A DNA stretch of 32,786 bases from NCBI GenBank assembly GCA_045652385.1, contig JAZRUD010000056.1, positions 1-32,786 of the forward strand, written 5' to 3'. Made by a program: the position numbers and the translations under genes. The stretch is from Clostridia bacterium. GTDB lineage: Bacteria > Bacillota > Clostridia > Christensenellales > CAG-138. Under the pieces are notes generated by a model, which saw only the letters and a program-made list of their open reading frames with translations, did not search any database and was not told where the DNA came from. This document shows, in pieces, positions 9,582-31,990 of this stretch (positions are counted from its first letter, which is position 1; each line of letters starts with the position of its first letter).

Positions 9582-9588
9582 TGAACAG

Positions 9589-10222: not shown

Positions 10223-10234
10223 GGATGTGAGGGC

Positions 10235-13200
10235 ATGGCCACGAACGTAAAGATGGGCGCGGACGTCGGGAGCTTCCGGCAGGGACTGCAGCAGGCGAAG
10301 AGCGAGATCCGCACGCTGGACCAGCAGATGAAGAAGGTCGAAGCGACCTTCAAGGCGACCGGAAACGCGGAGCAGGCCATGAGCCAGAAGGCCCAGACGC
10401 TGAACAGCCGCATGGAGGCCCAGCAAAAGGCGGCGAAGGCCGCGGAGGCAGCCCTGAAGGCCATGACCGAGGCCGGGGTCGACCAGGCGAGCGAAGCGTA
10501 TCAGAAGATGACGCGGGAGCTGCTGGCGGCGGAGACCGGCATGATGGAGACCCAGGCCGCGATGAACGACCTGGCAAGCGGGACGGACAAGCTGGCAAAA
10601 AGCGCGGAGAACGCGGCGGGGAAGGCCGGGAACCTGAAGAGCCAGGTCAGCGAGATCGGCAAGCACATGAGCCTCGACCTCGTGGAGAAGGGCTTCACCA
10701 CCGTAGGCAACATGATGGAGCGGACCGGGCAGAAGGCCGTAAACCTCGGGAAGCAGCTGATGAACGTGTTCAGCCAGGTCGGCGTATGGGCGGACGACGT
10801 GAACACCCGGGCGGCATTCTGGGGCAAAACGGCGGAGGAGATTCAGCGCCTGGACGTGGCCACGCAGAAGGCGGATATAAGCACCGAGGATTACCTGGCG
10901 ATGCAGGATCAGGTTTTCCGGCGGACAAAGGACCTGAGCGCGGCGACAGAGCAGCAGATCCAGGATATGCTGGATCTGGGGCTTGTCCAGAGGGAGACCG
11001 GGAAGGCCGGCGATTTCTACGTTGCGACCTACGACAACGCCGAGGACGCGATGTGGAACATGCTGGAAGCCCTCGAGAGGATGCCGGACAGCGAGAGGAA
11101 AGTACGCCTGGCAAACGAGTACGCGTCGAAGAGCTGGCGGGAGCTGATGGTCCTGGCCGGGAAAGGGCGGGAAGCATTCAAGCTGGATTACGACAGCGCG
11201 CCCATCGTGAGCCAGGAGAGCCTCGACAACGCGCAGGAGATGCAGGACAACCTGGAGGAGCTGCAGAGGCAGTTTGAGCAGCTGAAACGCGAGGTGGTCG
11301 GGGATCTGGCGCCGAGCATCAGCGCGGCGGCACAGAATCTGGCGTCGGTATTCAGCGAGCTGAACAAATACCTGCAGAGCGAAGAGGGCAAGGAAAAGAT
11401 GTCCGAGCTCAACCAGGTGCTGACGGACCTTTTCACGGACATCACGAACATCAACCCGGAAGCCGTGGTGCAGACGGTCAAAGACACGATCGGCGGGATC
11501 CGGGACGCGTTCAAATGGATTTTCGACAATAAAGAGACCCTGAAGGGGATGCTGGGCGCGATCCTCGGCGCGTGGGGCGCGGTCAAGGTGGCCGGCACGG
11601 TATCGACCTTTATCAGCCTGATCAACAACCTGAAAGCCCTGCAGCGAAACCCGAACATCCCGATCAATCCGACCGTGCCGACGGGGCCGACGGGGACGGG
11701 AACCGGAACAGGGACGGGGACGGGCAGCGTAAATATCCTGAACTGGCCGAGCGCGATGATGGCAAACCCGGTGCCGGTATACGTGACGAACATGACGGGG
11801 CTGCCGACGGGGTCGCCGACGGGGTCCCCGACGGGATCACCGACGGGATCGCCGACAGTGCTGCCGCCGGGAGGATCGCCGACAGCGCTGCCGCCGGGAG
11901 GGAGTCCGGTATTACCGGTCATCTGGCCGACGGGGCTCGGCGGCGGAGCGGGGCAGAACCTGACAGGCGTCAACACGACGAACCTGACCGGAGGAGGGAA
12001 CGACCTCATCAAGCTGCCTCCGGGAAGCTACAGCATGACGGACGAGTTCGGACGTGCCATCGGACCGAACGGACAGCCGGTCGCGCCGAAGGTTGACGTA
12101 GGAACCGGAGGCAAAAGCCCGCTGAACGGGCTGAAGTGGGGCGTAGCTACGGCAGCCGGGCTCGCCGTGCTGTTCAAGAACGCACTGACGGAGCAGGGGA
12201 ACGACGATCTGTACAAAAGCGCCTGGGAAGACGCGGCGGGGCGTGCCGTATACGTGGACCTGGAAGGGAAAACGCACTATTACAGCCCGACAGGACCGGA
12301 GAAGCCGGGAGAGGGATCGGAAGACGCGATCATGCGTATCCTGCAGGGCATGAGCGAAAGCGGAGAAGTTCCGGCCGGGCTTTGGAAATATGACAGGACG
12401 AGGCTGGAGCAGATCTTCGGGGCCGGCGGTTTCTCGGTGACGACAGGAGAAGCGACAAGGCGCGGAGCCGGGGCGAACAGCACAAAAAAACAGACGACAG
12501 GGGAGTGGCTGAACGACCTGCAGATCTGGTACGACATCCTGAAGCAGGGGCAGGACAACCCGGAGCTGAAGGCGGGGGTCGACTGGTTCGAGGGATACAT
12601 GCAGCAGCAGTACGGCAAGGGAGCGGGCATTGAGGGAATCAAGGCCCACCTGGCCGGGCTCGGGTACCGGAGCGAAGACCTGGACTATCACATGCTGCCG
12701 GAGGACATACAGAGAATCATCCGGGATCACATTGAGCATCAGAACCAGCAGGCAGAGGCAGAGGCCGTGCGGAAGCTCGAAGAGCAGGTGGAAGAGGAGA
12801 ACGCGGAGGTCCGAAAGGCAACATACGAGGCCAACAAGGAAGCCTTCGACCAGAACGTGGAGAACGTCAGGCAGTGGTTCACGATGCTGAACAGCATGCC
12901 GGAGGACGCGACGTTCCGGCTCGGGGACGAGACGCTGGGACTGAAGGAGGCCTGGGAAAAGGCGACGAGGCAGGCACTGGGCAATTATCTGAAAAACGGG
13001 ACCGTGGACCTGATCATCAACCAGATGAAGGATCAGGGGTATTCAGACGAAGCCTTCGACGAGATGATCAGGATCCTGATGACGAAGGAGCCGAAACTGC
13101 CGGTGGAGATTGTACCGGACGCAGAGGACGCGCAGAAGAAGCTGAACGAAATGGGCCTGACCATGAACGTCGGCGTGATCATCGAGTCGGTCCGGCACGG

Positions 13201-13450
13201 AGGCGGCGGAGGAGGCCGCGGACAGGTCATGACGCCTTTTGCCAACGGGATCCCGTACGTGCCGTACGACATGCCGGCCTTCCTGCATAAGGGCGAGCGC
13301 GTGACGCCGGCCAGGGAGAACAGGACGTACAACGCGAACAGCCATCTGTACGTCGAGAACATGAACATGTCGAGCGGGATGGACGCGAAGGCGCTGGTCG
13401 ACATGATGGCCGCGCAGCAGCGGAGAACCGCGGCCGGGTTCGGGAGCTGA
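10235..13450 (+). CDS. Tape measure protein
   Basis: 1071 aa with an Ala/Gln/Glu-rich helical N-terminal part and a hydrophobic segment GMLGAILGAWGAVKVAGTVSTFISLI. It follows the chaperone pair, and the C-terminus carries FANGIPYVPYDMPAFLHKGERVTPA. Confidence 0.9.
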   Translation: MATNVKMGADVGSFRQGLQQAKSEIRTLDQQMKKVEATFKATGNAEQAMSQKAQTLNSRMEAQQKAAKAAEAALKAMTEAGVDQASEAYQKMTRELLAAETGMMETQAAMNDLASGTDKLAKSAENAAGKAGNLKSQVSEIGKHMSLDLVEKGFTTVGNMMERTGQKAVNLGKQLMNVFSQVGVWADDVNTRAAFWGKTAEEIQRLDVATQKADISTEDYLAMQDQVFRRTKDLSAATEQQIQDMLDLGLVQRETGKAGDFYVATYDNAEDAMWNMLEALERMPDSERKVRLANEYASKSWRELMVLAGKGREAFKLDYDSAPIVSQESLDNAQEMQDNLEELQRQFEQLKREVVGDLAPSISAAAQNLASVFSELNKYLQSEEGKEKMSELNQVLTDLFTDITNINPEAVVQTVKDTIGGIRDAFKWIFDNKETLKGMLGAILGAWGAVKVAGTVSTFISLINNLKALQRNPNIPINPTVPTGPTGTGTGTGTGTGSVNILNWPSAMMANPVPVYVTNMTGLPTGSPTGSPTGSPTGSPTVLPPGGSPTALPPGGSPVLPVIWPTGLGGGAGQNLTGVNTTNLTGGGNDLIKLPPGSYSMTDEFGRAIGPNGQPVAPKVDVGTGGKSPLNGLKWGVATAAGLAVLFKNALTEQGNDDLYKSAWEDAAGRAVYVDLEGKTHYYSPTGPEKPGEGSEDAIMRILQGMSESGEVPAGLWKYDRTRLEQIFGAGGFSVTTGEATRRGAGANSTKKQTTGEWLNDLQIWYDILKQGQDNPELKAGVDWFEGYMQQQYGKGAGIEGIKAHLAGLGYRSEDLDYHMLPEDIQRIIRDHIEHQNQQAEAEAVRKLEEQVEEENAEVRKATYEANKEAFDQNVENVRQWFTMLNSMPEDATFRLGDETLGLKEAWEKATRQALGNYLKNGTVDLIINQMKDQGYSDEAFDEMIRILMTKEPKLPVEIVPDAEDAQKKLNEMGLTMNVGVIIESVRHGGGGGGRGQVMTPFANGIPYVPYDMPAFLHKGERVTPARENRTYNANSHLYVENMNMSSGMDAKALVDMMAAQQRRTAAGFGS
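11678..11905 (+). repeat. In-frame low-complexity tandem repeats inside the tape measure gene
   Basis: Three repeat blocks: PTGPTG(TG)5 at 11678-11728, 4 x 12 bp ccgacgggNtcN (PTGS) at 11804-11851, and 2 x 27 bp (SPTxLPPGG) at 11852-11905. Confidence 0.85.
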
Positions 13451-17100: not shown

Positions 17101-19049
17101 GGCTGGCCAATGACGCGATCACGCGGACGGTGCACATCGAGACGCTGGTCAGCGAGGACGGGATCCGGGACATGATCGTGACCGAGATCTCCGGGAACCT
17201 GGACGAGATCATCGACGAGACCGCGCAGGCAGCCATTGACCGGGTGCTGGAGCTCAAGGGCGGCTACAAGCAGTGGGACACGCCGAACCCGGAGCAGGAG
17301 GAGACGATCGCGACCGGCACGCTGTGGTACAAGGACCACGGGATGCGGACGCACGGCGACATGGCCGGGAAGACGCACCAGCAGCTGCACAGCTATCCGC
17401 ACAAGAGCTTTTCCGGCGGCGAGCTTTATATGTACATCGGAACCGGGACGGCGTACGATCCGACGAAATGGGTGCTGGTGAGCGACCCGGGGACGACGTA
17501 CCAGACGAAGGTCGAACTAAATCGGACAACCGAGGAGATCAACGCGGAGGTCACGCGGATCGCGACAAGCCTGAGCGGGACGCAGACGGACATCGCGGAC
17601 CTGAGGGTGAGCATAGGGACGATCAGCGCCACCGTGACCAGCGTACAGCGGACGGCGGACGGCGCGTATCAGCAGATGGCCGGCATCCTGATCCAGAGTG
17701 ACGGGGTGCACGTCAAGGCAAGCGCGGGATCCAGCGCGGCGGGCGTGGACATCACCTTCAGCGGGATCACGCTGGCGACGAACAAGAAGCTGACCGTGAG
17801 GGCGCAGGACCTGATCATCGGGAGCGGGAGCGGGGACACGCTGAAGGCGCAGCTGGACGCGCTGAGCGACCTGGACACGCTGGTGAGGACGACCGGCGTA
17901 CCGAAGGTCGTGACGACGGCTTTCACCATCTCCGGGAGCACGATGACCATGGGCGCGACCGGGACGATCGTCGTGGCGGCCAACAAGGCCATCCAGATCG
18001 GCACCAGCGCGAGCAACAGCTTCCTGACGGTCGACAACAGCGGCGTGGCCATCTCGACGGTCAAGAGCATCGCCCTGAAGGCCGGCGGGACCTTTACGAT
18101 CAACAGTAACAACTTCGCGGTCAACAGCGACGGCACGGTGACGGTCAAGGGAACCGTGGAGGCAGCGGCGGGTAAGATCGGGACCTGGAACATCGGGACG
18201 GACAGGCTGGAAAGCGGAACCGGGAGCGGGTACGTGGCGCTGAACAGCAAGGCCAGCGACACCTACGCCATCTGGGCCGGGAGCGAGAGCCCGACACAAG
18301 CCCCGTACCGGGTCAAACGAGACGGAACGGTCTACCTGACAAGCCTGATCGTGGTTGGGGAGAATGGATCGGAAACCACGGTCAACCTGCGGACGGCCGG
18401 GCTGTGGAAGCTCAGCTACCACACGGTCAAGGCATATTCGACGAACTCGATCACGCTGTCCAATGGTGTCACCGTAAATTTTAATACGGCCGCTTCCGTT
18501 GTCCTTAATGGAAGCTGGAGCGGCAGCAGCGCGAGCGGATGGACGTTCACCGTCACAAACACGGGGAACACACAGACACAGGCGACAACGATCACGCGGC
18601 AGTTTTCGCCATCGTCAGGCTGGAACGCGAACTGGAAAAAACAGATCACGATCTCAGGAACCGGATACGGAGGCGGCTTGCTGTATCAGTGGGAGGAAGA
18701 CGCGAGCGGAGCATACTCAGCCGGGAGCCCGGTCAGCGCTGCGCTCGGGGCGCTGTCGCATGACGCCGTGTACGGGCTGACGGTTACAAAGGGCGACAAC
18801 ACCGTATTTTCGACCGAGATCGACGCCCAGGGCATTTATGACGACGCGCGCGAAGGCTACACGTTAGGCGTGTTTGTCGAGTACACAGGGCAGAAGTACC
18901 GCATCAGCAACGGCAATTACCGGAACTTTGAACTGTTCCGCAGGGAAACCAATCCCGGCGGCGGGTGGTCTTACTGGTCGGTCGGCACCGGATACGTGCA
19001 GGTCGCGGAGATCACAGACACTTTATATGTGCAGGAGGAAGAGGAATGA
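14193..19049 (+). CDS. Tail-associated protein (Tal) fused to a long fibre / receptor-binding region
   Basis: 1618 aa with a GTG start that overlaps the Dit stop. The N-terminal tail-endopeptidase-type region carries an inserted CBM5/12-like and SH3b-like segment. An Ala/Ile/Thr periodic fibre region follows, then a duplicated His-motif module and a Gly/Ser/Thr-rich distal part. Confidence 0.85.
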   Translation: MIHLYYMGNRNYERNGDVILMPTSCIVREQGGGSYELEMDHPQDPDGKWEALEETLIIKAPVAAASIPKTFSGAEVDVYAANRDTELREAPNEPQRISYPLFEASSAMVTYTVGSKVSYIGHNYQMYAQDPKSEYGYWHTPDNYPDYWRRIADYSSGAQVLVRLKSGTEVYLIEQTSGTWYQVMTKAGVTGYVKAEHLTFVRHQTPEEIEAEEIREQLFRIYSVNVDTKGNKVRVNARHVSFDGNGVFLGDCEISQASPAMAIQRQIDARLTEYQGEIGTNLTSDDYPKYSAKLTGKSVIAGLLDPKDGIVAAYGAHVYRNNWDIAIVEPQNAVSGVRLRYGKNLRGVSWGRKTEKMATRVIPVAKGEGGADLYLPEIFVDSPYIDRYDVIMTERLVVNGQVGKDDGSGTETTWTEQSLYAEMRRKAEERFSVDHIDAPQISLAVEFTLLGDTEEYRQYRGLEKLHMYDSVSVKDPRIGLDVIMTVMETEWDAIRKEYRGIKLADTVDYGAGTIPGYQIQSGAIGGSHIQSGAISGGMISAGAITARTLAAEAITSDKIAARAITTRVLEAEAVTAEKIHAGAVTAEKVDTQDLFADSAVIQYVSAQAVEAVRVNAETITAETAWIQALNAQAIVAVDAEIQRVVAGQITTDALYAGIATIAQAMIAGAHIGDAQIDFANIADLKAAMIQAVNLDAQNISTGVLRASIAVIQDGEIDNADINTAHIVDLTADSFIAHDAVTDRYTISKLKVNNAQLVTATVGELVVKASDSHYYRIDVDPDTGEVTTTDVTQELSPGEITAGITSDGVATIIETDLTVDELSANNFSGLSALIDKIRADRIDVDTLFARQAFIGKLNTTDITGNSYLQLMVNTKNATYTQWADPALTHTVQPGDTWNRRAETHTHATMAAKTHAELGAYPHWAMSRYFKRYVRTTGGWELTEDLNEAHETQARILISQDSILQEVDSAVRLANDAITRTVHIETLVSEDGIRDMIVTEISGNLDEIIDETAQAAIDRVLELKGGYKQWDTPNPEQEETIATGTLWYKDHGMRTHGDMAGKTHQQLHSYPHKSFSGGELYMYIGTGTAYDPTKWVLVSDPGTTYQTKVELNRTTEEINAEVTRIATSLSGTQTDIADLRVSIGTISATVTSVQRTADGAYQQMAGILIQSDGVHVKASAGSSAAGVDITFSGITLATNKKLTVRAQDLIIGSGSGDTLKAQLDALSDLDTLVRTTGVPKVVTTAFTISGSTMTMGATGTIVVAANKAIQIGTSASNSFLTVDNSGVAISTVKSIALKAGGTFTINSNNFAVNSDGTVTVKGTVEAAAGKIGTWNIGTDRLESGTGSGYVALNSKASDTYAIWAGSESPTQAPYRVKRDGTVYLTSLIVVGENGSETTVNLRTAGLWKLSYHTVKAYSTNSITLSNGVTVNFNTAASVVLNGSWSGSSASGWTFTVTNTGNTQTQATTITRQFSPSSGWNANWKKQITISGTGYGGGLLYQWEEDASGAYSAGSPVSAALGALSHDAVYGLTVTKGDNTVFSTEIDAQGIYDDAREGYTLGVFVEYTGQKYRISNGNYRNFELFRRETNPGGGWSYWSVGTGYVQVAEITDTLYVQEEEE

Positions 19050-19429
19050 AACAGGGGCAGATCGTTAAAGCATTCACGACACTCAAGACGCTGACGGCGG
19101 TCAAGGGGCTGCCCTTCGGGACGCTCTCCGGGCTGTACCAGGCCCGGAGGGCGTTGAGCGGGCACGTGGAGGCCCAGCAGGAAAAGGAAATGGAGATCAT
19201 CCGCGAGCTGGGCGAGGTGCTTGAGGACGGGACGATCAGATTCAACGATCCGGAGGAGGGACCGAAGGAAATGAACCGGCGGTTCCTGGAGATCGTCGGG
19301 ACCGAGATCGACGCGAAGATCGAGCCGGTGACGGTCAGGATCGACCAGGCCGCGGCGGATAAGCTGGGGCTGGACGGCGAGATCCTGGGGGCGCTGGACG
19401 GATTTGTGGAATTTGACCTGATGGACTAA
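19046..19429 (+). CDS. Hypothetical fibre-region protein
   Basis: 127 aa counted from ATG 19046, which forms an ATGA overlap with the Tal stop. Acidic; no family recognised. Confidence 0.55.
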   Translation: MKQGQIVKAFTTLKTLTAVKGLPFGTLSGLYQARRALSGHVEAQQEKEMEIIRELGEVLEDGTIRFNDPEEGPKEMNRRFLEIVGTEIDAKIEPVTVRIDQAAADKLGLDGEILGALDGFVEFDLMD

Positions 19430-19441
19430 GGAGGGAAACGC

Positions 19442-19954
19442 ATGTCGATCACCAACAAAACGATGAAGACGCTGGCGGGCAATGTTACGATCACAAAGGA
19501 CTCCGCGGACGAAAACTACGACGTGAGCAGGGTGAACAGCAACAGCGACGCTTTTGCGGACGCGATCACGGGGCTCACGGAGAACGCGACGACGGTGGAG
19601 TCCGACAGCACCACGTACAAGGGGACGCTGTCGATCAACAGCGCCACCTACACGATCACGATCATCAGGATCGGGAAAATCCGCGTCGCACAGATGGGCA
19701 TCGGCGAGGGGACCACGCTGTCCGATTATACGGGAGGCAACCTGGACATCTGCACGCTCGCGTCCGGGGACCGTCCCAAGAACGCGGTTTCCGCGACAGG
19801 GCTCGCCCGGGATAACGGCGTATGGGGCTCGGCGAATTATACGCCGGTCAGTTTAGGCGTGGCTGCCGGCGGAGGCGTGACGCTGAAGGGCAATACGAAT
19901 GCGGTCAAAACCTGCGCGTACTGTACAGGACAAGTGGTATGGGTGACGGCATAA
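19442..19954 (+). CDS. Hypothetical Thr/Ser/Gly-rich fibre-region protein
   Basis: 170 aa with RBS aaggaggg. The composition is beta-rich, as in receptor-binding head domains. Confidence 0.55.
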   Translation: MSITNKTMKTLAGNVTITKDSADENYDVSRVNSNSDAFADAITGLTENATTVESDSTTYKGTLSINSATYTITIIRIGKIRVAQMGIGEGTTLSDYTGGNLDICTLASGDRPKNAVSATGLARDNGVWGSANYTPVSLGVAAGGGVTLKGNTNAVKTCAYCTGQVVWVTA

Positions 19955-19967
19955 AGGGGGAATCGGC

Positions 19968-20291
19968 ATGATCTTTATTCCTGGGACGACGGTCAACTGG
20001 TCGGCGCGGATCCACGCGGCGGCGGAGGAGCTGGACCGGGTGGTGCTCAGCTTCTGTGTGCAGGGCGCGGAGGTGCTGGTCAAGGCATACACGGAGTTTG
20101 AGGCGGACGAGGAGGAGGGCTGGGCGGACTTCACCGTGAGCCTCACGCAGGCGGAGAGCTTGCTTTTCCCGAACGCCGCGAGGATCGACGTGCAGGCCAA
20201 CGCCATGATGGACGACGACAGGTCCGCGACGGGGGTCGCGCAGATCCTGACGGACAGGCAGCTGCATCGGGAGGTGATGGGAAATGGCTGA
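19968..20291 (+). CDS. Hypothetical fibre-region protein
   Basis: 107 aa with RBS aaggggga. It overlaps the next gene by 8 nt. Confidence 0.55.
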   Translation: MIFIPGTTVNWSARIHAAAEELDRVVLSFCVQGAEVLVKAYTEFEADEEEGWADFTVSLTQAESLLFPNAARIDVQANAMMDDDRSATGVAQILTDRQLHREVMGNG

Positions 20292-20880
20292 TCTTGTTTT
20301 TGACCTGGTCGGAACGGCGGGAAGCATCGAGATGCAGATGGACCGGATCGGGCCGCGGGGCGTGGGCATCGCGAATGTGAAGCTTAACGACGACTACACC
20401 CTGACCGTGACGCTGACGGACGGGACGAGCTATACCACGGAGAGCATCCGGGGCGAGCAGGGGGACCCGGGTCAGCCTGGCGAGGACGGAGTATCTCCGA
20501 CTGTCACGGTGACCGACATTACAGGCGGGCACCGGGTCACCATCACGGACGCGACCGGGACGCATGTGGCGGACGTGATGGACGGAAGCAAGGGAGATCC
20601 GGGGGATCCCGGTCAGCCGGGCGAGGACGGCCATACGCCCGAGAAGGGCGTCGACTACTGGACGGCGGAGGATAAGGCGGAGATCGTGGAGGACGCGGCG
20701 GAGGCAGCTGCCGGCGACCTGATCGACGACACGGCCGGGGACGGCGACACCGACAAGGTGTGGAGCGCGGACAAGGCCGCGGAGGTTGCTTCGCAGTTAT
20801 CTTCTGCTTTACAAGTGAAAAAAATATTTGTTCGCCTTTACATTCCCACGCCATTGACGTATAATCCATTCACAACTTAA
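20284..20880 (+). CDS. Collagen-like repeat tail fibre protein, apparently C-terminally truncated or replaced
   Basis: G-X-Y runs GEQGDPGQPGEDG (20452-20490) and GSKGDPGDPGQPGEDG (20584-20631). Codon composition switches to AT-rich third positions at about 20787. The ORF ends 30 codons later, inside a promoter-like sequence. Confidence 0.72.
   Translation: MADLVFDLVGTAGSIEMQMDRIGPRGVGIANVKLNDDYTLTVTLTDGTSYTTESIRGEQGDPGQPGEDGVSPTVTVTDITGGHRVTITDATGTHVADVMDGSKGDPGDPGQPGEDGHTPEKGVDYWTAEDKAEIVEDAAEAAAGDLIDDTAGDGDTDKVWSADKAAEVASQLSSALQVKKIFVRLYIPTPLTYNPFTT
20837..20865 (+). promoter_or_regulatory. Sigma-A type promoter candidate for the tyrosine recombinase gene
   Basis: TTTACA, 17 nt, TATAAT. 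It lies in the last codons of the collagen-like ORF, 128 nt upstream of ATG 20993. Confidence 0.5.
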
Positions 20881-20881
20881 A

Positions 20882-20922
20882 AGGGCGCCGGTGCACCCCG
20901 CCAAGAGTATCACCGACGCCCT
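20882..20922 (+). other. GC-rich hairpin (12-position stem with one mismatch, 17-nt loop)
   Basis: agggcgccggtg pairs with caccgacgccct. No U-run follows, so it is not a canonical terminator. Confidence 0.45.
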
Positions 20923-20930
20923 GTCCGATT

Positions 20931-20962
20931 AGGACGGGAGAATTATATCACAATCCCGTCCT
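20931..20962. other. Perfect 9-bp inverted repeat flanking a 14-bp AT-rich spacer; candidate recombinase core site or RNA hairpin
   Basis: AGGACGGGA gaattatatcacaa TCCCGTCCT, ending 31 nt upstream of the recombinase ATG. Confidence 0.45.
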
Positions 20963-20992
20963 GCGACGCAATCGAAAGGATGGGATTTATTT

Positions 20993-21976
20993 ATGTCAAT
21001 GGAAGCCAAGCTGATGATGATCCAGGACATCGAGGAGCAGCTGCAGGAGGATCTGACAGTGGCCATGATGCGGAGGGTCAAGGAAACACTGGGGAACATT
21101 CTGGAAGGGTACCAGGTCGAGCATCTGAGAGTTGACGAGAACGGCGGGACGGATGACATGCTCGGTGCATTTCTGGCAGCAAAGAAGGTCGAGGGAAGAT
21201 CTCCGAAGACGCTGAAGCGGTACAAGTTTATCATGGATAAAGTGATCCGCTTTGCAGGAGAGCCGATTGGGAAGATCCAGGTCGGGCACATCCGGGATTA
21301 TTTTGGACATGAAAAGGATCGCGGAGTCAGCAGCAGGACGCTGGACGGTGAGAGGAGTGTGATCAGCGGATGCTTCGGGTGGCTTGTGAAGGAAGAGCTG
21401 ATCCGTAAAAATCCATGCGCGAACATGAGCGTGATCAAATACACCAAGAAGGTAAAGATCCCGTTCTCGAACACGGACATCGAGATGATGAAGGAAAGCG
21501 CGAAGACGGTCCGGGATCGGGCCATCATCTGCTTTTTGCTGTCGACCGGAGCGAGGATCAGCGAGGTGTGCGCGCTTGACCGGGACGACATCAATTTTCA
21601 GGACCTCGAATGTAAGGTGCTCGGGAAGGGGAATAAAGAGCGGACGGTATATCTGGACAATGTGGCGTCGATGATGCTGCAGAGGTACCTGAAAAGCAGG
21701 ACGGACGATTCCCCGGCGCTGTTTGTCGGAAAGCGACGCGAGAGGCTGACCACTGACGGAGTGAGGAGAATGCTGAACGTGATCGAGGCGCGGAGCGGGG
21801 TCGAAAATATACATCCGCACCGGTTCAGGAGGACGCTGGCAACCGGGCTGATCAATCACGGGATGGCGATCCAGGAAGTGGCAAACATCCTGGGCCATGA
21901 GAACATCAACACGACGATGCAGTACGTTTATGTAGAGAAGCAGAATGTCAAAAACAATTACAGACGATACGCCTGA
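20993..21976 (+). CDS. Tyrosine site-specific recombinase (XerC/XerD-like phage integrase family)
   Basis: 327 aa with a SAM-like N-terminal domain (FLAAKKVEGRSPKTLKRYKF). Catalytic-region motifs are STGARISEV (Arg), HPHRFRRTLAT (H-x-x-R), LGHENINTT (His) and MQYVYV (Tyr). Confidence 0.9.
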   Translation: MSMEAKLMMIQDIEEQLQEDLTVAMMRRVKETLGNILEGYQVEHLRVDENGGTDDMLGAFLAAKKVEGRSPKTLKRYKFIMDKVIRFAGEPIGKIQVGHIRDYFGHEKDRGVSSRTLDGERSVISGCFGWLVKEELIRKNPCANMSVIKYTKKVKIPFSNTDIEMMKESAKTVRDRAIICFLLSTGARISEVCALDRDDINFQDLECKVLGKGNKERTVYLDNVASMMLQRYLKSRTDDSPALFVGKRRERLTTDGVRRMLNVIEARSGVENIHPHRFRRTLATGLINHGMAIQEVANILGHENINTTMQYVYVEKQNVKNNYRRYA

Positions 21977-21982
21977 ACAGGG

Positions 21983-22006
21983 GCCGCTCGAATGAGCGGC
22001 TTTTTT
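21983..22006 (+). terminator. Rho-independent terminator after the tyrosine recombinase gene
   Basis: gccgctc gaat gagcggc followed by tttttt. Confidence 0.75.
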
Positions 22007-22022
22007 GATGGGAGGTTAATTT

Positions 22023-22271
22023 ATGGTCTGGATCTACTGGGTGATGGTTGTCATCGGCACAGCCGGGATTGTCTGGTATTTTACCGTAACATGGATGGAA
22101 AAACGACAGTCGCGCCCTCCCGATCTGGATCCTACTGACAAGGCTGTAATGAGTGAAAACCGATGTGTGTTTTGCCAGAACGTGATCCCGGAAGGAAGAA
22201 TTGTATGCCCGGATTGTGAGCGAAGGATCATGTCAGAAGCGCACGAGAGAGGGGGGAGATACCGTGATTAA
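22023..22271 (+). CDS. Membrane-anchored zinc-ribbon protein (lysis-cassette associated)
   Basis: 82 aa with RBS gggagg. An N-terminal TM helix (VWIYWVMVVIGTAGIVWYFTV) is followed by CVFC-x11-CPDC. The 3' end overlaps the endolysin start. Confidence 0.6.
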   Translation: MVWIYWVMVVIGTAGIVWYFTVTWMEKRQSRPPDLDPTDKAVMSENRCVFCQNVIPEGRIVCPDCERRIMSEAHERGGRYRD

Positions 22272-22983
22272 AGCAAAGGATCTGATAAAAAAGGTCGCTC
22301 AGGCGTACAATGAAAAATGGGGATACATCTGGGGGAAATCAGGTCAGGTATGGACGAAAGCGGCTCAGGATGCCGCCACCCGCGAGATGACCGTTAAGTA
22401 TGGCAGTAAGTGGATCGGCAAGCGGGTCGCTGACTGCAGTGGTCTCCTCGCATGGGCGTTCAAAGAGCTTGGCGGATACATTTATCACGGATCTAATACC
22501 CAGTACGATAAGTACACCTCCAGCAGGGGGACACTGTCCAACGGCCAGCGATCCGACGGAAAGCCGATCATGCCCGGCACAGCTGTCTTTCTGCGGGAGA
22601 GCAACGGCAAGCGCGGCCACGTCGGGCTGTACATCGGAGACGGTCAGGTAATCGAAGCGAAGGGCACCAGGTACGGCGTGGTCATGTCAGATCTCGGTCA
22701 CTGGGAAGACTGGGGGGAGCTGAAGGACGTAGATTACACCGACGTTGACGGGACCCAGCCGGAACCAGCTCCGGAGCCCGTGCCGCTTACAGGGGAAGCT
22801 GTGGTGGACGTGCCGAACGATGGGACGGTCAATGTGAGGCTGCGGCCAAGCACGGGATCTAAGCTGATGCGGACACTTCCGGAGGGGGCCACCGTGCAGG
22901 TAATCGCAGATGACGGCACGTGGAGCAAAGTGTTGGTGGAAGGATATATCATGAGCCGATTCCTGAAGAAAGGAGGCGCGTGA
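22264..22983 (+). CDS. Endolysin: NlpC/P60 peptidase domain plus a C-terminal SH3b cell-wall-binding domain
   Basis: GTG 22264 is preceded by ggggggag. Catalytic-type motifs are VADCSGLLAWAF (Cys) and GHVGLYIGDGQVIEA (His). A PEPAPEPVP linker leads to the SH3b-like VNVRLRPSTGSKLMRTLPEGATVQV. Confidence 0.85.
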   Translation: MIKAKDLIKKVAQAYNEKWGYIWGKSGQVWTKAAQDAATREMTVKYGSKWIGKRVADCSGLLAWAFKELGGYIYHGSNTQYDKYTSSRGTLSNGQRSDGKPIMPGTAVFLRESNGKRGHVGLYIGDGQVIEAKGTRYGVVMSDLGHWEDWGELKDVDYTDVDGTQPEPAPEPVPLTGEAVVDVPNDGTVNVRLRPSTGSKLMRTLPEGATVQVIADDGTWSKVLVEGYIMSRFLKKGGA

Positions 22984-22985
22984 TT

Positions 22986-23285
22986 ATGCCTGCGGTCGAA
23001 GGGGTCGTGACACCGGAATATCTGTGGATCACTCTGGTCACGATCATAGCACTGGGGGCTGTGCTGCTGCTGGTGCTCAATATTATCAGCAAAGTGCGGG
23101 AGCTAAAGAAACCAAAGATGAACGAAGAAGAACTGATCAAATCCGTGAAAAAGCATGACGTCGAGCTGCAGCTGCTGCTGAAGGCTCAGATGCTCATGCT
23201 TAAGCACATGGTGGACGGGAATTCGGTGGACAAGCTGAAGGAAATGCAGGACGAGATCAACCGGTACCTGCTGACGCTTTTATGA
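22986..23285 (+). CDS. Single-pass membrane protein with a coiled-coil tail (holin-like or lysis regulator)
   Basis: 99 aa counted from ATG 22986. The TM segment is LWITLVTIIALGAVLLLVLNII, followed by a charged helical tail. Confidence 0.55.
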   Translation: MPAVEGVVTPEYLWITLVTIIALGAVLLLVLNIISKVRELKKPKMNEEELIKSVKKHDVELQLLLKAQMLMLKHMVDGNSVDKLKEMQDEINRYLLTLL

Positions 23286-23294
23286 GGAGGCAAC

Positions 23295-23528
23295 ATGATG
23301 ATTAATTGGAAAGAGTGGGCGAAGGCGGCTGGGATCCGCGCACTGCGTACGTTCGGACAGGCTGCTCTGGCGTATGTCGGATCCAGTTCGATCGTTCTGA
23401 GCGACGTAAACTGGATAGGAGCGCTGAGCGCAGGCGCGTTGGGCGCGGTCATCTCCGTGCTGATGGCGCTGGCCGGGCTGCCGGAGGTTGATAAAAAATG
23501 TCGAGATGATGATGCCTGCGATTTGTAA
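23295..23528 (+). CDS. Holin (phi LC3 / r1t-like family)
   Basis: 77 aa with RBS gaggagg. The pattern WKEWAKAAGIRALRTFGQAALAYVG plus a second hydrophobic segment and a charged C-terminus fits this holin family. Confidence 0.7.
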   Translation: MMINWKEWAKAAGIRALRTFGQAALAYVGSSSIVLSDVNWIGALSAGALGAVISVLMALAGLPEVDKKCRDDDACDL

Positions 23529-23539
23529 CGGACACGATG

Positions 23540-23572
23540 AAGGCCGAGGAGAAATCCCCGGCCTTATTTTTT
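23540..23572 (+). terminator. Terminator between the holin gene and the convergent serine recombinase gene
   Basis: aaggccg ... cggcctt stem followed by attttttatt. Confidence 0.6.
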
Positions 23573-23602
23573 ATTGCAAAAACGGAAGATGAAGGATATA
23601 AT

Positions 23603-25141
23603 TCAGGAGGCGATCTTAATCATGTAATCGCCACTGGTGAGATGGTAAAGTGTTCGTTTAGGGTCCAGAGGAATCCAATTGTCCGCACTAAACGAACACA
23701 CGAGTGCGGGAGGAAGATCGGAAGATTTTTGCCGGTCTTCTTTTTTTATGCTGAAATAGATCTGCATGTGGTCCGCATGGATCTCGACACGGGTGACAAA
23801 GGCGTCAAGCAGGCCGGCGCGGGTGAAATCCTGATCCTCATGCCCGGATCGGAATATTTCGAGGTAGCTGATGATATCGTCTTCCGTCAGCTGATCGGTG
23901 AACAGCTGCTCCGTGTCCCGGATCTGAGCGGAGAGATCCGCTTCTTCACGTTCAAGACGGAGGAGCTCCTCTTTGGTTGTATCGGTGATAATTCCGGCGA
24001 GGATCGCTTTCATCAGGTTCGATTTCTGAGTTTTTACGGACTGCAGCTGAGCACGGAGGATATCAAGATCCGTTTCCGGGAGGAGCTTCTGCTGATCCAT
24101 ATATGTCTGATGAGCCATCCAGCGGATTGAGTCATCAGAGAGGACATCGTCCCAGATGGCCCGGCAGACGGCGGATTCGAGCTGATCCCGGGCGTAACTG
24201 CGCTGATCACAGCGGTGGGCACGGTGGCCCTGACAGGTGTAGTAGTAGCAGAGTTTACCGGACTTGGAGGTGCCGCTGGTACCGGTCATGGCGGAGGAAC
24301 ACAGACCGCAGTACAATTTCCCGGTCAGCATGTAGATCCCGTTCGGCGTGCGGCGCGGGCCGCGGGGGCGAGCCTTATTCGGAAGTAGTGCCTGCACCTT
24401 GTAAAAGGTATCTTTATCCACGATCTGAGGGATCGCGTCTTCTTTGATATTGTATTTGCTGACATATGTGCCGATATACCGCTGATTGGTCAGCAGAGAA
24501 TTGAAAGATGATTTTCCCCACGCAGATCCGTGCCGGGTGCGGATGCCGCGGGCGTTCAGGCCCCGGTAAATATCCGCGTAAAGATCACCGGCAGCGACCC
24601 GGCGAAAGATCTCGCGCACGACATCAGCCTCTTCGGGCTGGATTTCATAATGACCGTCAGCGGAGCGACGGAACCCGAAGGGGACGGATCCGGTGGCGAG
24701 GCAGTGCTGGGCGTTGTTCTCGTAGCCACGGCGAATCTTCTGGGACAGCTCGGCGGAATAATACTGGGCGAGGCCCTCAAACACGGATTCGACCAGGATG
24801 CCGGAGGGACTGTCTGAGATCGGCTCGGTGGCGGAGATCACACGGACGCCGGCCTGGCGAAGCTCATATTTGTACCGGGCTGAATCGTATTTATCCCGGG
24901 AGAAACGGTCGAGGGCGTAGACCAGGACGAACGAAAAGGATCCACCATGCGCGTCTTTGATCATCCGAAGGAACTGAGGGCGCTGATCCGTTCGACCGGT
25001 CATGGCGTGATCTGAATACACGCGGAGGATCTCATACCCGTTTTGCCGGGCAAAAGCGGTGCAGATATTGATTTGCTGTTCGATGGAAGCTTCGCGCTGG
25101 GCGTTTGATGAGAACCGGGCATAAATGACAGCTGGTATCAT
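23603..25141 (-). CDS. Large serine recombinase (phage integrase type)
   Basis: 512 aa with a resolvase-type N-terminus (VIYARFSSNAQREASIEQQ, Ser nucleophile). A recombinase domain follows, then a Cys cluster (CGLC ... CYYYTC) and a C-terminal coiled coil. Confidence 0.92.
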   Translation of the reverse strand: MIPAVIYARFSSNAQREASIEQQINICTAFARQNGYEILRVYSDHAMTGRTDQRPQFLRMIKDAHGGSFSFVLVYALDRFSRDKYDSARYKYELRQAGVRVISATEPISDSPSGILVESVFEGLAQYYSAELSQKIRRGYENNAQHCLATGSVPFGFRRSADGHYEIQPEEADVVREIFRRVAAGDLYADIYRGLNARGIRTRHGSAWGKSSFNSLLTNQRYIGTYVSKYNIKEDAIPQIVDKDTFYKVQALLPNKARPRGPRRTPNGIYMLTGKLYCGLCSSAMTGTSGTSKSGKLCYYYTCQGHRAHRCDQRSYARDQLESAVCRAIWDDVLSDDSIRWMAHQTYMDQQKLLPETDLDILRAQLQSVKTQKSNLMKAILAGIITDTTKEELLRLEREEADLSAQIRDTEQLFTDQLTEDDIISYLEIFRSGHEDQDFTRAGLLDAFVTRVEIHADHMQIYFSIKKEDRQKSSDLPPALVCSFSADNWIPLDPKRTLYHLTSGDYMIKIAS

Positions 25142-25320
25142 TTTCTTCTCCTTAATTCATTGAGAATGGCAATCAGCAGGCCGATGATAATAACGCCGAT
25201 AAGATAATAAAGACGCGGAGGGACGAGAAGAGAAATGATAATTTCAGCAAGACCTGGCAAAAAAGGAATCGCAACAATAACCAGGGCGACGATCAGGGCA
25301 GTAATGACATATTTTTTCAT
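25138..25320 (-). CDS. Small two-TM membrane protein
   Basis: 60 aa counted from the internal ATG (MKKYVITALIVALVIVAIPFLPG...IGVIIIGLLIAIL). RBS ggaggag. The stop overlaps the recombinase ATG (ATGA). Confidence 0.55.
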   Translation of the reverse strand: MKKYVITALIVALVIVAIPFLPGLAEIIISLLVPPRLYYLIGVIIIGLLIAILNELRRRK

Positions 25321-25454
25321 ACAGACTCCTCCGGGTTTTTTGTAATGTTCTGCCAGTTCGGGAAACATTCGAGAAAATGATCACATTCGTCACAACATTC
25401 AGGGTTGGATTCACACAGATCGGGGGATCCGGGGCTATATTTTTCTTTATCCAT
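25317..25454 (-). CDS. Small Cys-rich acidic protein (45 aa), below the ORF-track size cut-off
   Basis: It encodes MDKEKYSPGSPDLCESNPECCDECDHFLECFPNWQNITKNPEESV. RBS agggaga. There are ATGA overlaps with both neighbours, and an alternative start at 25460. Confidence 0.45.
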   Translation of the reverse strand: MDKEKYSPGSPDLCESNPECCDECDHFLECFPNWQNITKNPEESV

Positions 25455-25456
25455 AT

Positions 25457-25870
25457 TCATTCTCCCTTTGGCGTCTCTGGGATTTGTAAAAAGCCGTTCA
25501 CTTCTGAGGCGGAAAAAGGATCCAACCTGTGGAAAGAGCGGTAACCGCCTTCAACACGGTAATACAGGATGCCGTCGACGAGACTCATGGTAAAGATAGA
25601 GCCGGGACCGGCATTGAGGTAAAATGTTTTTCCGTCAGGGTCTGCGCTCCAGCTCATAGTGGAGGAAGCAGGCAGGTAATCGCTCTGATCAGTATAGGAG
25701 CAGGCCGTGTGATCGCTTTTGAAATCAATCACGTAAAGATACCATGAATCAAACTGCGGGCGGCTTTCATAAAGGATGTACCATATGCCGATGAGATCTT
25801 CTTCCGCAGCGAAGGAGGAAGAGGATAGAAAGAGGAGAGCAGCGAGTAGAAGAGCAAGGAACTTTTTCAT
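25457..25870 (-). CDS. Secreted protein with an SPase I signal peptide (candidate prophage surface or exclusion factor)
   Basis: ATG 25870 lies 7 nt after GGAGG. The signal peptide is MKKFLALLLAALLFLSSSSFA/AEED with no lipobox Cys. The mature part is beta-rich and Trp/Tyr-rich. Confidence 0.65.
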   Translation of the reverse strand: MKKFLALLLAALLFLSSSSFAAEEDLIGIWYILYESRPQFDSWYLYVIDFKSDHTACSYTDQSDYLPASSTMSWSADPDGKTFYLNAGPGSIFTMSLVDGILYYRVEGGYRSFHRLDPFSASEVNGFLQIPETPKGE

Positions 25871-25898
25871 ATTCACACCTCCAAATAATAATCGGCCA

Positions 25899-26237
25899 TC
25901 AGGCCGGGTGGTTCAAAAGGGTGCTCAGGGCGTCGGATCTGGCCCGGTCATCAGCTGCCCGCCAGGCGCGGATCAGAGCCTTCTCATCATCGGAAAGAGA
26001 GAGGATCTCGACTCTTTTGGACACGTCGAAACCGTAAAGCCACGGAATGGTCACGCCGAAGTACATGGCGAGCGCGTTGATGATTGGCTGGCGAGGGCTG
26101 TTCTGACCGGTGACCCAGGCACTGATCGTCTGGCGAGCGATGCCGAAATCGGAAGCGATGGAAGATTGAGATTTCCCGCTTTCTTCAATCAGCTCACACA
26201 GGCGCTGCTGGAATGTGGAGACTTTCTTTTCAGTCAT
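25899..26237 (-). CDS. XRE-family HTH repressor (CI-like)
   Basis: 112 aa with HTH FQQRLCELIEESGKSQSSIASDFGIARQTISAWVTGQNSP. It is divergent from a Cro-like gene across an operator-rich region. Confidence 0.85.
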   Translation of the reverse strand: MTEKKVSTFQQRLCELIEESGKSQSSIASDFGIARQTISAWVTGQNSPRQPIINALAMYFGVTIPWLYGFDVSKRVEILSLSDDEKALIRAWRAADDRARSDALSTLLNHPA

Positions 26238-26254
26238 AAAATCACCTCTTTTCC

Positions 26255-26283
26255 ATTATATGGAAAAAGAAAAGAAAAAGCAA
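26255..26283 (-). promoter_or_regulatory. Promoter candidate for the repressor operon (PRM-like)
   Basis: On the minus strand: TTGCTT, 17 nt, TATAAT. The -10 element is embedded in the palindrome TTTTCCATTATATGGAAAA. Confidence 0.5.
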
Positions 26284-26314
26284 CCGCCAAAAGTAAAAAA
26301 TGTCCATTTAATGG

Positions 26315-26343
26315 TTGACAATGCAAATTGAACATGCTAAGAT
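26315..26343 (+). promoter_or_regulatory. Early rightward promoter candidate (PR-like)
   Basis: TTGACA, 17 nt, TAAGAT, upstream of the Cro-like gene. Confidence 0.55.
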
Positions 26344-26389
26344 AAGCTGTCCATTAAATAGACAATTCAATCAAAGGAGGTACACAACA

Positions 26390-26635
26390 ATGGAGCAGAC
26401 CAAAGGGACAGCTCTGCGCGGGAGAGTCATCGAGAAATACGGATCTCTTTCAAACTTCGCGGAGGCGCTGGGGTGGAGCGCTCGAAAGGTCAGTTACATT
26501 GTCGGGGAGAAACAATCACCGACAGCAAAGGAAACTGAAGAGATGGCGAAAAGGCTGGACGTAGACAACGCTCAGGACTTTATGCGCATTTTTTATCCTC
26601 AGATGTCCATCAAATGGACTGACATCGTGGCTTGA
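26390..26635 (+). CDS. Cro-like / XRE-type HTH protein
   Basis: 81 aa counted from ATG 26390 with RBS aaaggagg. HTH-like SNFAEALGWSARKVSYIVGEKQSP. The longer ORF-track start would read through the promoter. Confidence 0.7.
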   Translation: MEQTKGTALRGRVIEKYGSLSNFAEALGWSARKVSYIVGEKQSPTAKETEEMAKRLDVDNAQDFMRIFYPQMSIKWTDIVA

Positions 26636-30881: not shown

Positions 30882-31118
30882 ATGGAGAAATCAAAACGAG
30901 GAGGACGAAAAGCCTTCCAGCGGATGATTAAGGATGTGCCAAATCTACTCCCAGAGGTTCGACTCCTCTGCCCGGTTTTCAAAAATAATCATCATTACGA
31001 AATGGAGGGGGTCACGGGGGAAACAGCAGACAAAGCCAACAGCGCGTGCGAGGAGCTGCGGGTCTGCTGGTGCCACCGTGTGGATAGCCGCCGGAGGCAG
31101 AAGGAGGGGTCGGGATGA
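30882..31118 (+). CDS. Questionable ORF upstream of rep (may be non-coding origin or leader sequence)
   Basis: 78 aa with a poor RBS, although its stop overlaps the rep ATG (ATGA). It contains a tRNA T-arm-like hairpin. Confidence 0.35.
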   Translation: MEKSKRGGRKAFQRMIKDVPNLLPEVRLLCPVFKNNHHYEMEGVTGETADKANSACEELRVCWCHRVDSRRRQKEGSG

Positions 31119-31990
31119 GCTGGGAATACGCTGACCTGTTTGATGTCCGGATCGGAGAACCAGAGCAGCTGACATTATGGACAGCAGCGGCTCCGACGGT
31201 GACGGTCGGCAGGATGGGGTACAGGACGCGGACGATAAAAGCCGGTCCGAGGTTAGAAATTGATATCTACCCGATCTGGGGGAGAGAGGACGCAGGCCGC
31301 GCGAGGAGAGCGAAAAAGCAGAACGCGACACCGGAGAGGATACAGCGAGCAAACGAAGAACGAAACAGACATCTGCTGGTTTTACTTGCGGATGCAAACT
31401 TCACAGCAGAGGATCAGCACGTGACGCTGACATATTCCGGTTCTGATCCGAGCTACGACAATACGCTGAAGTTCGTAAGGAACTTCCTGAGCCGGGTCAA
31501 GAGAGCAAGATCACGGAAGGGGCTTCCGCCGCTGAAATACATCTACAGTGTGGAGGACAATGAAGACGGGAAGCCGGTAAAGCGTCACGTGCATATGCTG
31601 ATGAGCGGAGGACTGACAAGAGAGGAGATCGAGGCGCTATGGGGGAAGGGCTTTGCAAACGTGGACAGGCTCCAGCCGACGGAGCGAGGGCTTGAGGCGA
31701 TCGCGATGTATATTACAAAACAACAGCGGAACAGACATCGGTGGTGTGCATCGAAGAATCTGAAGAGACCAGGGGATCCGGGGTTTAAGGTTAGGGTCAG
31801 CAATACAAAGGTTAGCAACAGCCGAGTGAAACGGATCGCGGCATCGGTAGAGAACAACGCGAAAGAGGTGCTGCAGAAACTGTATCCGGATTATCAATTT
31901 GTAGACTGCAGGGCATACGGGAGCGACATACTGCCAGGTGTGTACATAAAGGCACTGATGCGGAAACACGAGAGGAGGCGGATCACGTGA
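31115..31990 (+). CDS. HUH-superfamily rolling-circle replication initiator-like protein
   Basis: 291 aa with RBS aaggagggg. Three ordered motifs are present with typical spacing: HVTLTY (motif 1), RHVHMLM (HUH motif 2) and AIAMYITKQ (catalytic Tyr motif 3). Confidence 0.72.
   Translation: MSWEYADLFDVRIGEPEQLTLWTAAAPTVTVGRMGYRTRTIKAGPRLEIDIYPIWGREDAGRARRAKKQNATPERIQRANEERNRHLLVLLADANFTAEDQHVTLTYSGSDPSYDNTLKFVRNFLSRVKRARSRKGLPPLKYIYSVEDNEDGKPVKRHVHMLMSGGLTREEIEALWGKGFANVDRLQPTERGLEAIAMYITKQQRNRHRWCASKNLKRPGDPGFKVRVSNTKVSNSRVKRIAASVENNAKEVLQKLYPDYQFVDCRAYGSDILPGVYIKALMRKHERRRIT

Follow-up and report, generated by a model that had tools for sequence, protein, structure and literature searches.

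A candidate orphan tyrosine recombinase of invertase lineage, with a structured leader, in temperate Clostridia phages

Introduction

Rin, the shufflon invertase of Bifidobacterium prophages, has been reported as the first tyrosine invertase of a phage (Mavrich et al. 2018, PMC6109161). The passages on Rin in that account describe a phage-encoded, XerD-like tyrosine recombinase without an arm-binding domain, whose gene lies beside the genes for tail receptor-binding proteins (RBPs) and separate from the canonical integrase. A gene with the same attributes occurs in a stretch of 32,786 nucleotides from a Clostridia bacterium (GenBank assembly GCA_045652385.1, contig JAZRUD010000056.1, positions 1 to 32,786), the whole of which is referred to here as the window. 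Its product belongs to the same family, and has the same length, as the PsrA (CreX/IvrR) invertases of phase-variable type I restriction-modification (R-M) loci (PMC7096588, PMC4948785), for one of which, PsrA, DNA inversion has been demonstrated in vitro (PMC7096588). We read it as an orphan, tightly controlled and catalytically intact armless tyrosine recombinase of the PsrA/Rin invertase lineage, the translation of which appears to be limited by a structured leader, and we would give this reading a probability of about 0.5.

As far as the passages on Rin allow the comparison, the likeness to Rin is one of architecture and gene position, and those passages mention no structured leader. Behaviour of the Rin type is seen in a nested clade of homologues (42-46% identity), where several C-terminal cassettes can be inverted at an 11-bp core and joined to a constant N-terminal gene; the fibre shufflon of this clade is analogous to that of Rin. 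The window has the armless recombinase next to tail-fibre genes and apart from the integrase, but, unlike Rin, neither it nor any of the leader- and XRE-type loci described below carries inverted sites, variable cassettes or repeated crossover sites. With regard to PsrA, the window recombinase is 36.6% identical over 322 aa to that of the Streptococcus pneumoniae hsdS locus (L084; such labels denote the loci compared) and 42% identical over 274 aa to that of the hsdS locus on the Lactococcus cremoris plasmid pJM2A. The PsrA-type relatives are named XerA by the NCBI pipeline, and the best NCBIfam model for the window protein is the same ('XerA/integron integrase'); unlike the PsrA-type loci, the window has no hsdS or hsdM genes and no inverted hsdS repeats.

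The enzyme also resembles Cre/loxP of phage P1, XerA, XerH/difH and XerS/difSL, all of which are armless two-domain tyrosine recombinases. XerA provides its best sequence and structural matches, though the NCBIfam score of 219 bits falls just under the cutoff of 220. In contrast to the Xer and Cre systems, no dif- or lox-like site with a 6-8-bp spacer was found in the window, and the gene is not a chromosomal dimer-resolution gene. The palindromic difSL site lies directly upstream of xerS, and the window gene likewise has a candidate palindromic site directly upstream. Unlike the heterobivalent integrases of the lambda Int type, the window protein begins with a two-helix hairpin and a disordered linker, with no arm-binding domain and no arm-like repeats in the DNA.

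An intact enzyme with invertase relatives

The open reading frame (ORF) is intact, and its product matches Pfam Phage_integrase (PF00589) at 1.4e-39 together with SAM-like N-domains (core-binding), as well as PHROG 'integrase' families. An alignment of 20 homologues shows no variation at R188, K212/K215, H276, R279, H302 and Y311, and the protein combines the R-K-H-R-H/W-Y set with the catalytic-domain fold that defines tyrosine recombinases, in keeping with the original prediction of a XerC/D-like enzyme with its catalytic motifs in place. An AlphaFold2 (AF2) model (mean predicted local distance difference test, pLDDT, 81.6) shows the N-terminal two-helix hairpin (residues 3-38), the disordered linker, a standard core-binding domain and the catalytic domain, and no arm-binding domain was detected either by Pfam or by fold (AF2 with Foldseek). 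Foldseek returned XerA as the top match, with Tn1549 Int, XerD, the armless integrase Brujita Int and SroF among the others, and archaeal XerA proteins are the best solved relatives. The presence of SroF, weak Pfam MrpR_C_cat matches on homologues and a literature precedent (PMC10516654) raise the question of whether the protein is not an enzyme but a DNA-binding regulator with a recombinase fold, as are the SPbeta repressor MrpR/YopR and phi3T SroF. This is extremely unlikely, given that the family shows no variation at any catalytic residue, the tyrosine nucleophile among them, and that members of the clade demonstrably mediate inversions.

Homologues of 324-331 aa are plentiful. A nucleotide search of window positions 19000-23600 against GenBank phages gave no match, relatives of the flanking endolysin and fibre-region proteins were not found in IMG/VR, and the literature searched describes no function for this recombinase family in Clostridia phages.

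Two groups of relatives have known or observable substrates. When the screened homologue loci (a set to which the window itself does not belong) were searched with tblastn, hsdS/hsdM matches were obtained in 50 loci, all but one of them cellular-genome loci with recombinases of 36-42% identity; in the 45 loci for which the recombinase start was located, the matches lie within 4 kb of it. These loci (L013-L085) include S. pneumoniae (L084), S. mitis, S. suis (L052) and Allobaculum (L021), while on the plasmids pRV500 (L377) and pJM2A (L379) the recombinase gene sits between hsdS genes. The recombinases of this clade are hsdS invertases of the PsrA/CreX type. Contigs of ~1.6 kb that carry a recombinase gene occur in unrelated metagenome-assembled genomes; they were considered as a circular or insertion-sequence-like recombinase element, which was rejected as no terminal overlaps were found. 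At least four of the 12 contigs checked (L026, L044, L050, L063) carry hsdS-like sequence, so that assembly breaks at hsdS inverted repeats are the likely cause for some of them.

The second group, at 42-46% identity (L009-L011, L136, L138, L140, L239, L241, L242, L244, L245), is a Clostridia phage tail-fibre (RBP) shufflon in which inversions are observed. The recombinase gene is surrounded by inverted copies of a conserved 11-bp core, TTAAACACGAA, one inside a small upstream gene and one ~50 nt before the recombinase ATG, often with a second pair downstream. Between L239 and L242 a 561-bp segment is inverted at 99.8% identity, L244 and L010 differ by two inversions, of 836 bp and 553 bp, and in L245 and L138 cassettes are shifted across the recombinase gene relative to L136. 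In L136 a constant N-terminus ('...KLGINT|LNTK') is joinable to four alternative C-terminal cassettes; the shufflon region there spans 9170-11830, and its cassettes (up to four) each begin with LNTK or LNTN. As a separate observation, L098 and L194 share the same exact 15-nt inverted repeat, GTTACTGATTTAAAG, at -2113/-2523 and -266 from the recombinase start, so placed that one arm is just upstream of the gene, which may represent a second, independent type of inverton.

A neighbour-joining (NJ) distance tree places the hsdS clade as the outgroup and the shufflon clade between two leader-bearing phage clades, so that the clade of the window lies inside the bracket of invertase relatives. From this position in the tree we infer that the window enzyme probably is, or was, an invertase.

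A structured leader that appears to sequester the ribosome-binding site

The leader ahead of the recombinase gene was noted in the original prediction as structured, and it folds at -44.4 kcal/mol with a z-score of -3.7, none of 200 shuffled sequences doing as well. Over the ~115 nt from promoter to ATG it is more conserved than the protein in L001, L002, L005, L087, L091 and L132. The leader comprises three helices, P1 to P3 (Table 1). The P1 stem has been replaced wholesale in L087, L091 and L132 with its pairing kept (for example GGGCGCGTG/CACGCGCCC and GGGGCAGACG/CGTCTGCCCC), while its loop CCCCGCCAAGAG is conserved; P2 is an exact palindrome with conservation in stem and loop alike. P2 and P3 exclude each other, as the 3' arm of P2 serves in P3 as an anti-Shine-Dalgarno sequence that pairs with the Shine-Dalgarno (SD) region, and P3 forms part of the minimum free energy structure in the window. 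Its duplex there reaches -20.6 kcal/mol, as against -9.6 kcal/mol when the upstream sequence is shuffled, and 0/200 shuffles were as good. Of the eight group-A loci, seven have values of -17 to -21 versus ~-10 kcal/mol, at most 2/200 shuffles being as good; in L132 the duplex is not significant (-15.1 versus -12.2 kcal/mol, 14/200). In L091 three compensating changes occur together, with G>T in the P2 5' arm, C>A in the P2 3' arm and G>T in the SD region.

A diverged group of leaders retains the layout. P1 and P2 are 90.9% paired there, compared with 28-44% in slid controls, and five pairs are changed on both sides; P3 is 83% paired, compared with 47-67% in controls, and covaries (TTTG/CAAA, TTTA/TAAA, TTTGA/TCAAA, TTTAC/GTAAA). 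Covariance models built from either leader subgroup detect the other, and match only directly upstream of homologous recombinases (down to 35-45% identity) and of one canonical integrase. The latter, in L099, is an unrelated canonical integrase of 392 aa preceded by a weaker leader match with the same P1/P2/P3 layout. The L099 integrase leader (13071-13209, minus strand), with P1, P2 and an SD-sequestering P3, has a z-score of -4.25, and leaders of this type may serve the recombinase genes of these phages more generally. In Clostridium phage phiCp-D the SD of the recombinase gene is likewise hidden in a hairpin.

The leader is absent from Rfam 15: the whole window gave no matches at gathering thresholds, and at E <= 5 the region 20500-22300 yielded two weak and irrelevant matches only. 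A search of IMG/VR with the exact P2 pattern (GGACGGGA-N10-16-TCCCGTCC) returned at least 120 matches, and none among those listed has the leader features. In common with SD-sequestering leaders and riboswitch expression platforms, the window leader has exclusive helices (P2 versus P3) that place the ribosome-binding site in a stem, conserved loops and covarying stems; unlike riboswitch families, it has no Rfam 15 match. The leader appears to be an RNA device that limits or gates translation, and P1/P2/P3 could be a new cis-regulatory RNA for recombinase genes. The palindrome 20931-20962, which had been suggested as a substrate for recombination, is more readily understood as helix P2, the 3' arm of which supplies the anti-SD sequence. 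The minus strand of the leader folds equally well. P1 was considered as a minus-strand terminator or antisense RNA and set aside, since a minus-strand promoter was not found and P3 uses G.U pairs available on the plus strand only; P1 by itself might have such a role.

Transcription unit and alternative modes of control

The recombinase is flanked by its own promoter and terminator (Table 1), both of which had been predicted and both of which are present. With 11 of 12 consensus positions, the promoter is the best-scoring site within 18500-26500, and the leaders of L001, L002, L005 and L091 are likewise preceded by a TATAAT box whose position with respect to P1 is the same; no such box was seen there in L087 and L132. 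The terminator hairpin (21979-22004, with a T-run to 22006) has a folding free energy of -16.7 kcal/mol (z = -3.2) and is kept in L246 and L247. A consensus scanner overlooked it, possibly because G-T pairs lengthened the stem into the T-run. Tiny ORFs of 19-24 codons that encode very hydrophobic peptides, such as MDIVELLFLALFIATILSTVFFRK, immediately precede the recombinase promoter in L001 (9751-9825), L005 (9752-9826) and L002 (9626-9685); the window is without them.

In 24 other loci the recombinase gene is under the control of a divergent XRE-family gene and two palindromic operators that lie over the -35 and -10 boxes. This module is found ~150 nt upstream of the recombinase (L089, L090, L094, L095, L099, L100, L105, L114, L135 and others), and the XRE-like protein is 72-87 aa in length (MIVYxDILxRLxxxGWSTYRL...). 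The operator half-sites vary between loci (AGACT, ACACC, AGATT, CCAAT) and match within a locus. A survey of 183 non-redundant loci counted 20 with the leader, 24 with the XRE arrangement, 18 in which the gene is embedded in an operon and 121 others. The original view of a self-contained unit of promoter, leader and terminator apart from the canonical integrase stands, and generalises to many phages.

Search for target sites

For none of the cassette sequences was a partner found in the window, in either inverted or direct orientation, and second copies of the junction, leader and terminator were limited there to chance matches of at most 13 nt. Inverted repeats of at least 18 nt near the recombinase in 13 related loci were weak, imperfect pairs at chance level. 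A further test concerned inverted 10-mers that have one arm adjoining the recombinase and are common to at least two loci: the shufflon group, which served as control, yielded 21 motifs, with TAAACACGAA in six loci, whereas the leader-A (8 loci), leader-D (11) and XRE (16) groups yielded none. The absence of inverted 10-mers in these 35 loci, together with the lack of a partner in the window, makes the enzyme an orphan as to cis substrates, and agrees with the earlier remark that the window holds no partner inverted repeat. The suggestion that the recombinase swaps or inverts fibre cassettes hence applies to the nested clade of homologues, in which this is observed, but not to the window and window-type loci, which are without partner sites.

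The remaining candidates fared no better. A 19-nt inverted repeat (17375-17393 / 23058-23076, 18/19 complementary) that flanks the fibre-recombinase-endolysin block was judged to be chance CAG/CTG low-complexity coding sequence in unrelated ORFs. No dif- or lox-like palindrome of the form 11-N(5-9)-11 was found near the cassette (the output was dominated by an N-run in L002), and neither an attP-like site or repeat structure nor arm-like repeats around the gene were found in the window. The same applies to hsdS and hsdM genes and inverted hsdS repeats, the scanned window ORFs being phage genes or unassigned.

Several observations weigh against the reading of the gene as a translationally restrained orphan of the invertase lineage. 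No target site was found for the window enzyme, whose assignment as an invertase derives from phylogenetic bracketing, and the tree concerned is a quick distance tree with no support values. The contigs L002-L004, all three from a single related phage, have collinear gene lists bar one extra small ORF, and no inversion is evident among them. Taken one by one, the loci of the diverged leader group show weak SD sequestration, with 2-60 of 200 shuffles doing as well. A C.A mismatch, G.T when read on the minus strand, recurs in P1, and the mismatches in P2 are of mixed type, so that P1 and P2 could still act as DNA, either bound by protein or as a folded single strand. Lastly, distant members (27-31% identity) keep the position between tail and lysis genes in ParM-bearing elements, namely phiCp-D and a circular 49.9-kb C. 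botulinum plasmid-prophage, and are plausible candidates for a role in resolving multimers.

The last point bears on the proposal that the enzyme works like Cre/lox or Xer/dif on a single phage-borne site, possibly P2, and resolves multimers or aids cyclisation of the genome, as would suit a replicon with a rolling-circle Rep. The Rep gene is present, the architecture of the recombinase is that of a simple Xer protein, each candidate site occurs as a single copy per genome as a resolution site requires, and the geometry of P2, which is 9-14-9 in the window, becomes ~8-6-8 in diverged relatives, where it resembles 8-9-bp arms around a 6-nt AT-rich spacer. The phage-plasmid members, however, branch outside the clade of the window, the closest relatives with functional evidence are invertases, and near the window gene itself no dif-like 11-6-11 site was found. 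The centre of P2 in the window is 14 nt long and asymmetric, which is atypical for a crossover site. Moreover, the P2 3' arm covaries with the SD region and the same P1/P2/P3 layout precedes the unrelated integrase of L099, which argues that P2 is an RNA device and not the site of this enzyme. A resolution function is a serious but less probable rival, and the orphan of invertase lineage is the reading that we retain.

A deletion in the adjoining fibre gene

The collagen-like fibre ORF upstream of the recombinase is cut short, and nucleotide composition drops close to 20800, from a GC fraction of 0.68 (20400-20799) to ~0.50 (20800-21199), both as originally described. The first ~175-179 codons of this ORF encode fibre and the last ~20 read through the promoter region of the recombinase. 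It is 80% identical to residues 1-194 of the 470-aa fibre protein P0243, and then stops. On the contig of P0243 (L372), the 470-aa fibre gene is followed by a 99-aa ORF, the same promoter, leader and recombinase (98% identical to that of the window), a small ORF and the endolysin. By blastn, L372 2-1016 corresponds to window 19841-20811 (85%) and L372 2194-4143 to window 20807-22759 (96.7%); the window thus lacks 1,177 bp, and the junction is the 5-bp overlap CTTTA. The missing segment comprises the C-terminal ~280 codons of the fibre and the 99-aa ORF, and in L372 the promoter, leader and gene lie 186 nt downstream of the junction sequence that it has in common with the window. The identity of L246, which is of the L372 type, to the window begins at 20807, while L247 is uniformly 96% identical across 21298-23828.

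The sharp left edge of the cassette is accordingly a deletion scar. The sharp changes in composition and in similarity to L246 at 20807, along with the self-contained unit, had suggested a small mobile recombinase cassette that inserted into the fibre gene and truncated it. That account is scarcely credible and the comparison with L372 refutes it: identical promoter, leader and gene lie behind an intact fibre gene and the 99-aa ORF, and the two breakpoints have only CTTTA in common. Similarity to L246, L247 and L372 runs on past the terminator and into the lysis genes, which leaves no right-hand boundary for an element. The breakpoints were also considered as sites of the recombinase itself and rejected; CTTTA is all they share in L372, their alignment score of 15 was equalled by 113 of 500 shuffles, and neither has a shufflon-like core. 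With no partner site, and a fibre gene truncated by an unrelated 1.18-kb microhomology deletion, the recombinase is left as an orphan.

Phage context

Otherwise the window has the gene set of a temperate, siphovirus-like phage, with terminase, portal, capsid, tape measure, tail, endolysin and holin. The canonical integrase position is occupied, as predicted, by a large serine recombinase with three domain matches, and the rolling-circle Rep is likewise confirmed (Table 1). Where context is available, homologues of the recombinase gene stand next to the lysis genes, where the tail-fibre block ends, or follow a diversity-generating retroelement, the exceptions being L248 and L250, in which the gene is embedded in other operons. 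Most phages examined that have a homologue also have a separate canonical integrase beside the repressor. In L001-L004 this is a short tyrosine recombinase, and in nine further loci a tyrosine integrase of 341-396 aa or a serine integrase; L099, L105, L095, L135, L154, L150, L142 and L156 all combine a separate integrase with the lysis-side recombinase, and the cultured Terrisporobacter phage TPELB_ph1 has a homologue and a second integrase of 527 aa. The recombinase gene is a conserved accessory gene of temperate Clostridia phages that is distinct from the integrase.

This distribution speaks against a second integrase that would give the phage an alternative attachment site. Homologues are annotated 'integrase' in public records, and armless integrases exist, as the structural match to Brujita Int illustrates. 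Set against this are the missing arm-binding domain, the canonical integrase that co-occurs in the integrative phages examined, the position between tail and lysis genes away from the repressor, and the failure to find an attP-like repeat structure; a second integration system with its own attP consequently finds no support and is very unlikely. The cassette is neither a lambda-type integrase nor a mobile insertion.

Among the more distant loci, L375/L376 (phiCp-D, MW478291) and L378 (C. botulinum Su0604 plasmid NZ_CP022402) are phage-plasmid-like and carry ParM/StbA, with the recombinase gene between tail and holin genes; no other integrase is annotated in the regions of phiCp-D that were viewed. 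The phage represented by L002-L004 has a diversity-generating retroelement between its tail-fibre genes and the recombinase (L002/L003 4796-8113, L004 3951-6642), with an RVT_1 reverse transcriptase and DUF6273 and CBM_5_12 proteins.

Three further features of the window deserve mention. The 82-aa ORF that follows the terminator (22023-22271) encodes a hydrophobic segment at the N-terminus and gives a weak zinc-ribbon-like match (CxxC...CxxC) below threshold; it shares 8 nt with the NlpC/P60-SH3 endolysin gene (22264-22983), for which a GTG at 22264 is the likely start. A one-mismatch 11-6-11 palindrome at 122-149, AAAAATGATGC-TGAAAA-GCATCGTTTTT, lies upstream of ORF 175-624, the ORF ahead of the large terminase gene. 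The palindrome resembles a bidirectional terminator, yet its geometry is dif-like. Just downstream of the major capsid gene (5689-5953) there are two tandem units of 132-133 nt, 92% identical and rich in GCGGAGG-type nonamers.

Table 1. Positions of the recombinase unit and associated features in the window
Feature	Position	Strand	Details
Truncated collagen-like tail-fibre ORF	20284-20880	+	198 aa; Pfam CFSR/Collagen
Deletion junction	20807-20811	.	CTTTA, 5-bp microhomology; 1,177 bp missing relative to L372
Sigma-70-type promoter of recombinase unit	20837-20865	+	TTTACA-17-TATAAT; 11/12 match
Leader helix P1	20883-20921	+	arms GGGCGCCGGTG / CACCGACGCCC; conserved loop CCCCGCCAAGAG; recurrent C.A mismatch
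Leader helix P2	20931-20962	+	arms AGGACGGGA / TCCCGTCCT; 14-nt loop with conserved TATA.CAC
Leader helix P3	20952-20988	+	anti-SD AATCCCGTCCT (= P2 3' arm) pairs with SD region AGGATGGGATT (20978-20988)
Tyrosine recombinase gene	20993-21976	+	327 aa; armless, Xer-like; invertase lineage
Intrinsic terminator	21979-22006	+	10-11 bp GC-rich stem, GAAU loop, T6
Large serine recombinase (canonical integrase, usual place by lysogeny genes)	23603-25141	-	512 aa; Resolvase, Recombinase, Zn_ribbon_recom
Rolling-circle Rep	31115-31990		PF23343

Proposed mechanism and significance

In the scheme that we propose for the orphan recombinase, the gene would be transcribed as its own unit from the promoter to the terminator. 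P1 and P2 of the leader would form first, after which the 3' arm of P2 may instead pair with the SD region in P3 and hide it, so that the protein would be made only from a fraction of the transcripts, or only under some condition. The enzyme is expected to catalyse conservative recombination between short sites. In the nested clade these are the ~11-bp cores inside the RBP gene and beside the recombinase, with inversion exchanging alternative C-terminal cassettes; the substrate of the window enzyme may have been lost, be too short or divergent to see, or lie in trans.

An extension of the last option, which is speculative and which we hold to be quite improbable, is that the leader- and XRE-type recombinases are widespread orphan phage invertases that act in trans, on host hsdS invertons or on the fibre loci of co-resident prophages, and that they are gated by a riboswitch-like leader, of a kind not described before, sensing a cellular or phage signal. 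Host type I R-M hsdS invertons are the substrates of the sister clade of these recombinases, and if the idea were true, phages would thereby control epigenetic or restriction phase variation in their hosts.

The 'second integrases' of gut Firmicutes phages are routinely annotated as integrases, and the present analysis indicates that in one large family of them integration is not the function. This family belongs to the invertase lineage that drives both hsdS phase variation and the shuffling of phage RBPs. Some 35 leader- and XRE-type loci have no local substrate, yet are under unusually tight control, be it by an XRE repressor with paired operators or by a structured leader, and the tight control of these orphan genes makes it a testable matter what an orphan phage invertase recombines. 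The Clostridia fibre shufflon, for its part, appears to extend the Rin-type system beyond Bifidobacterium, which bears on the prediction of host range in gut phages.

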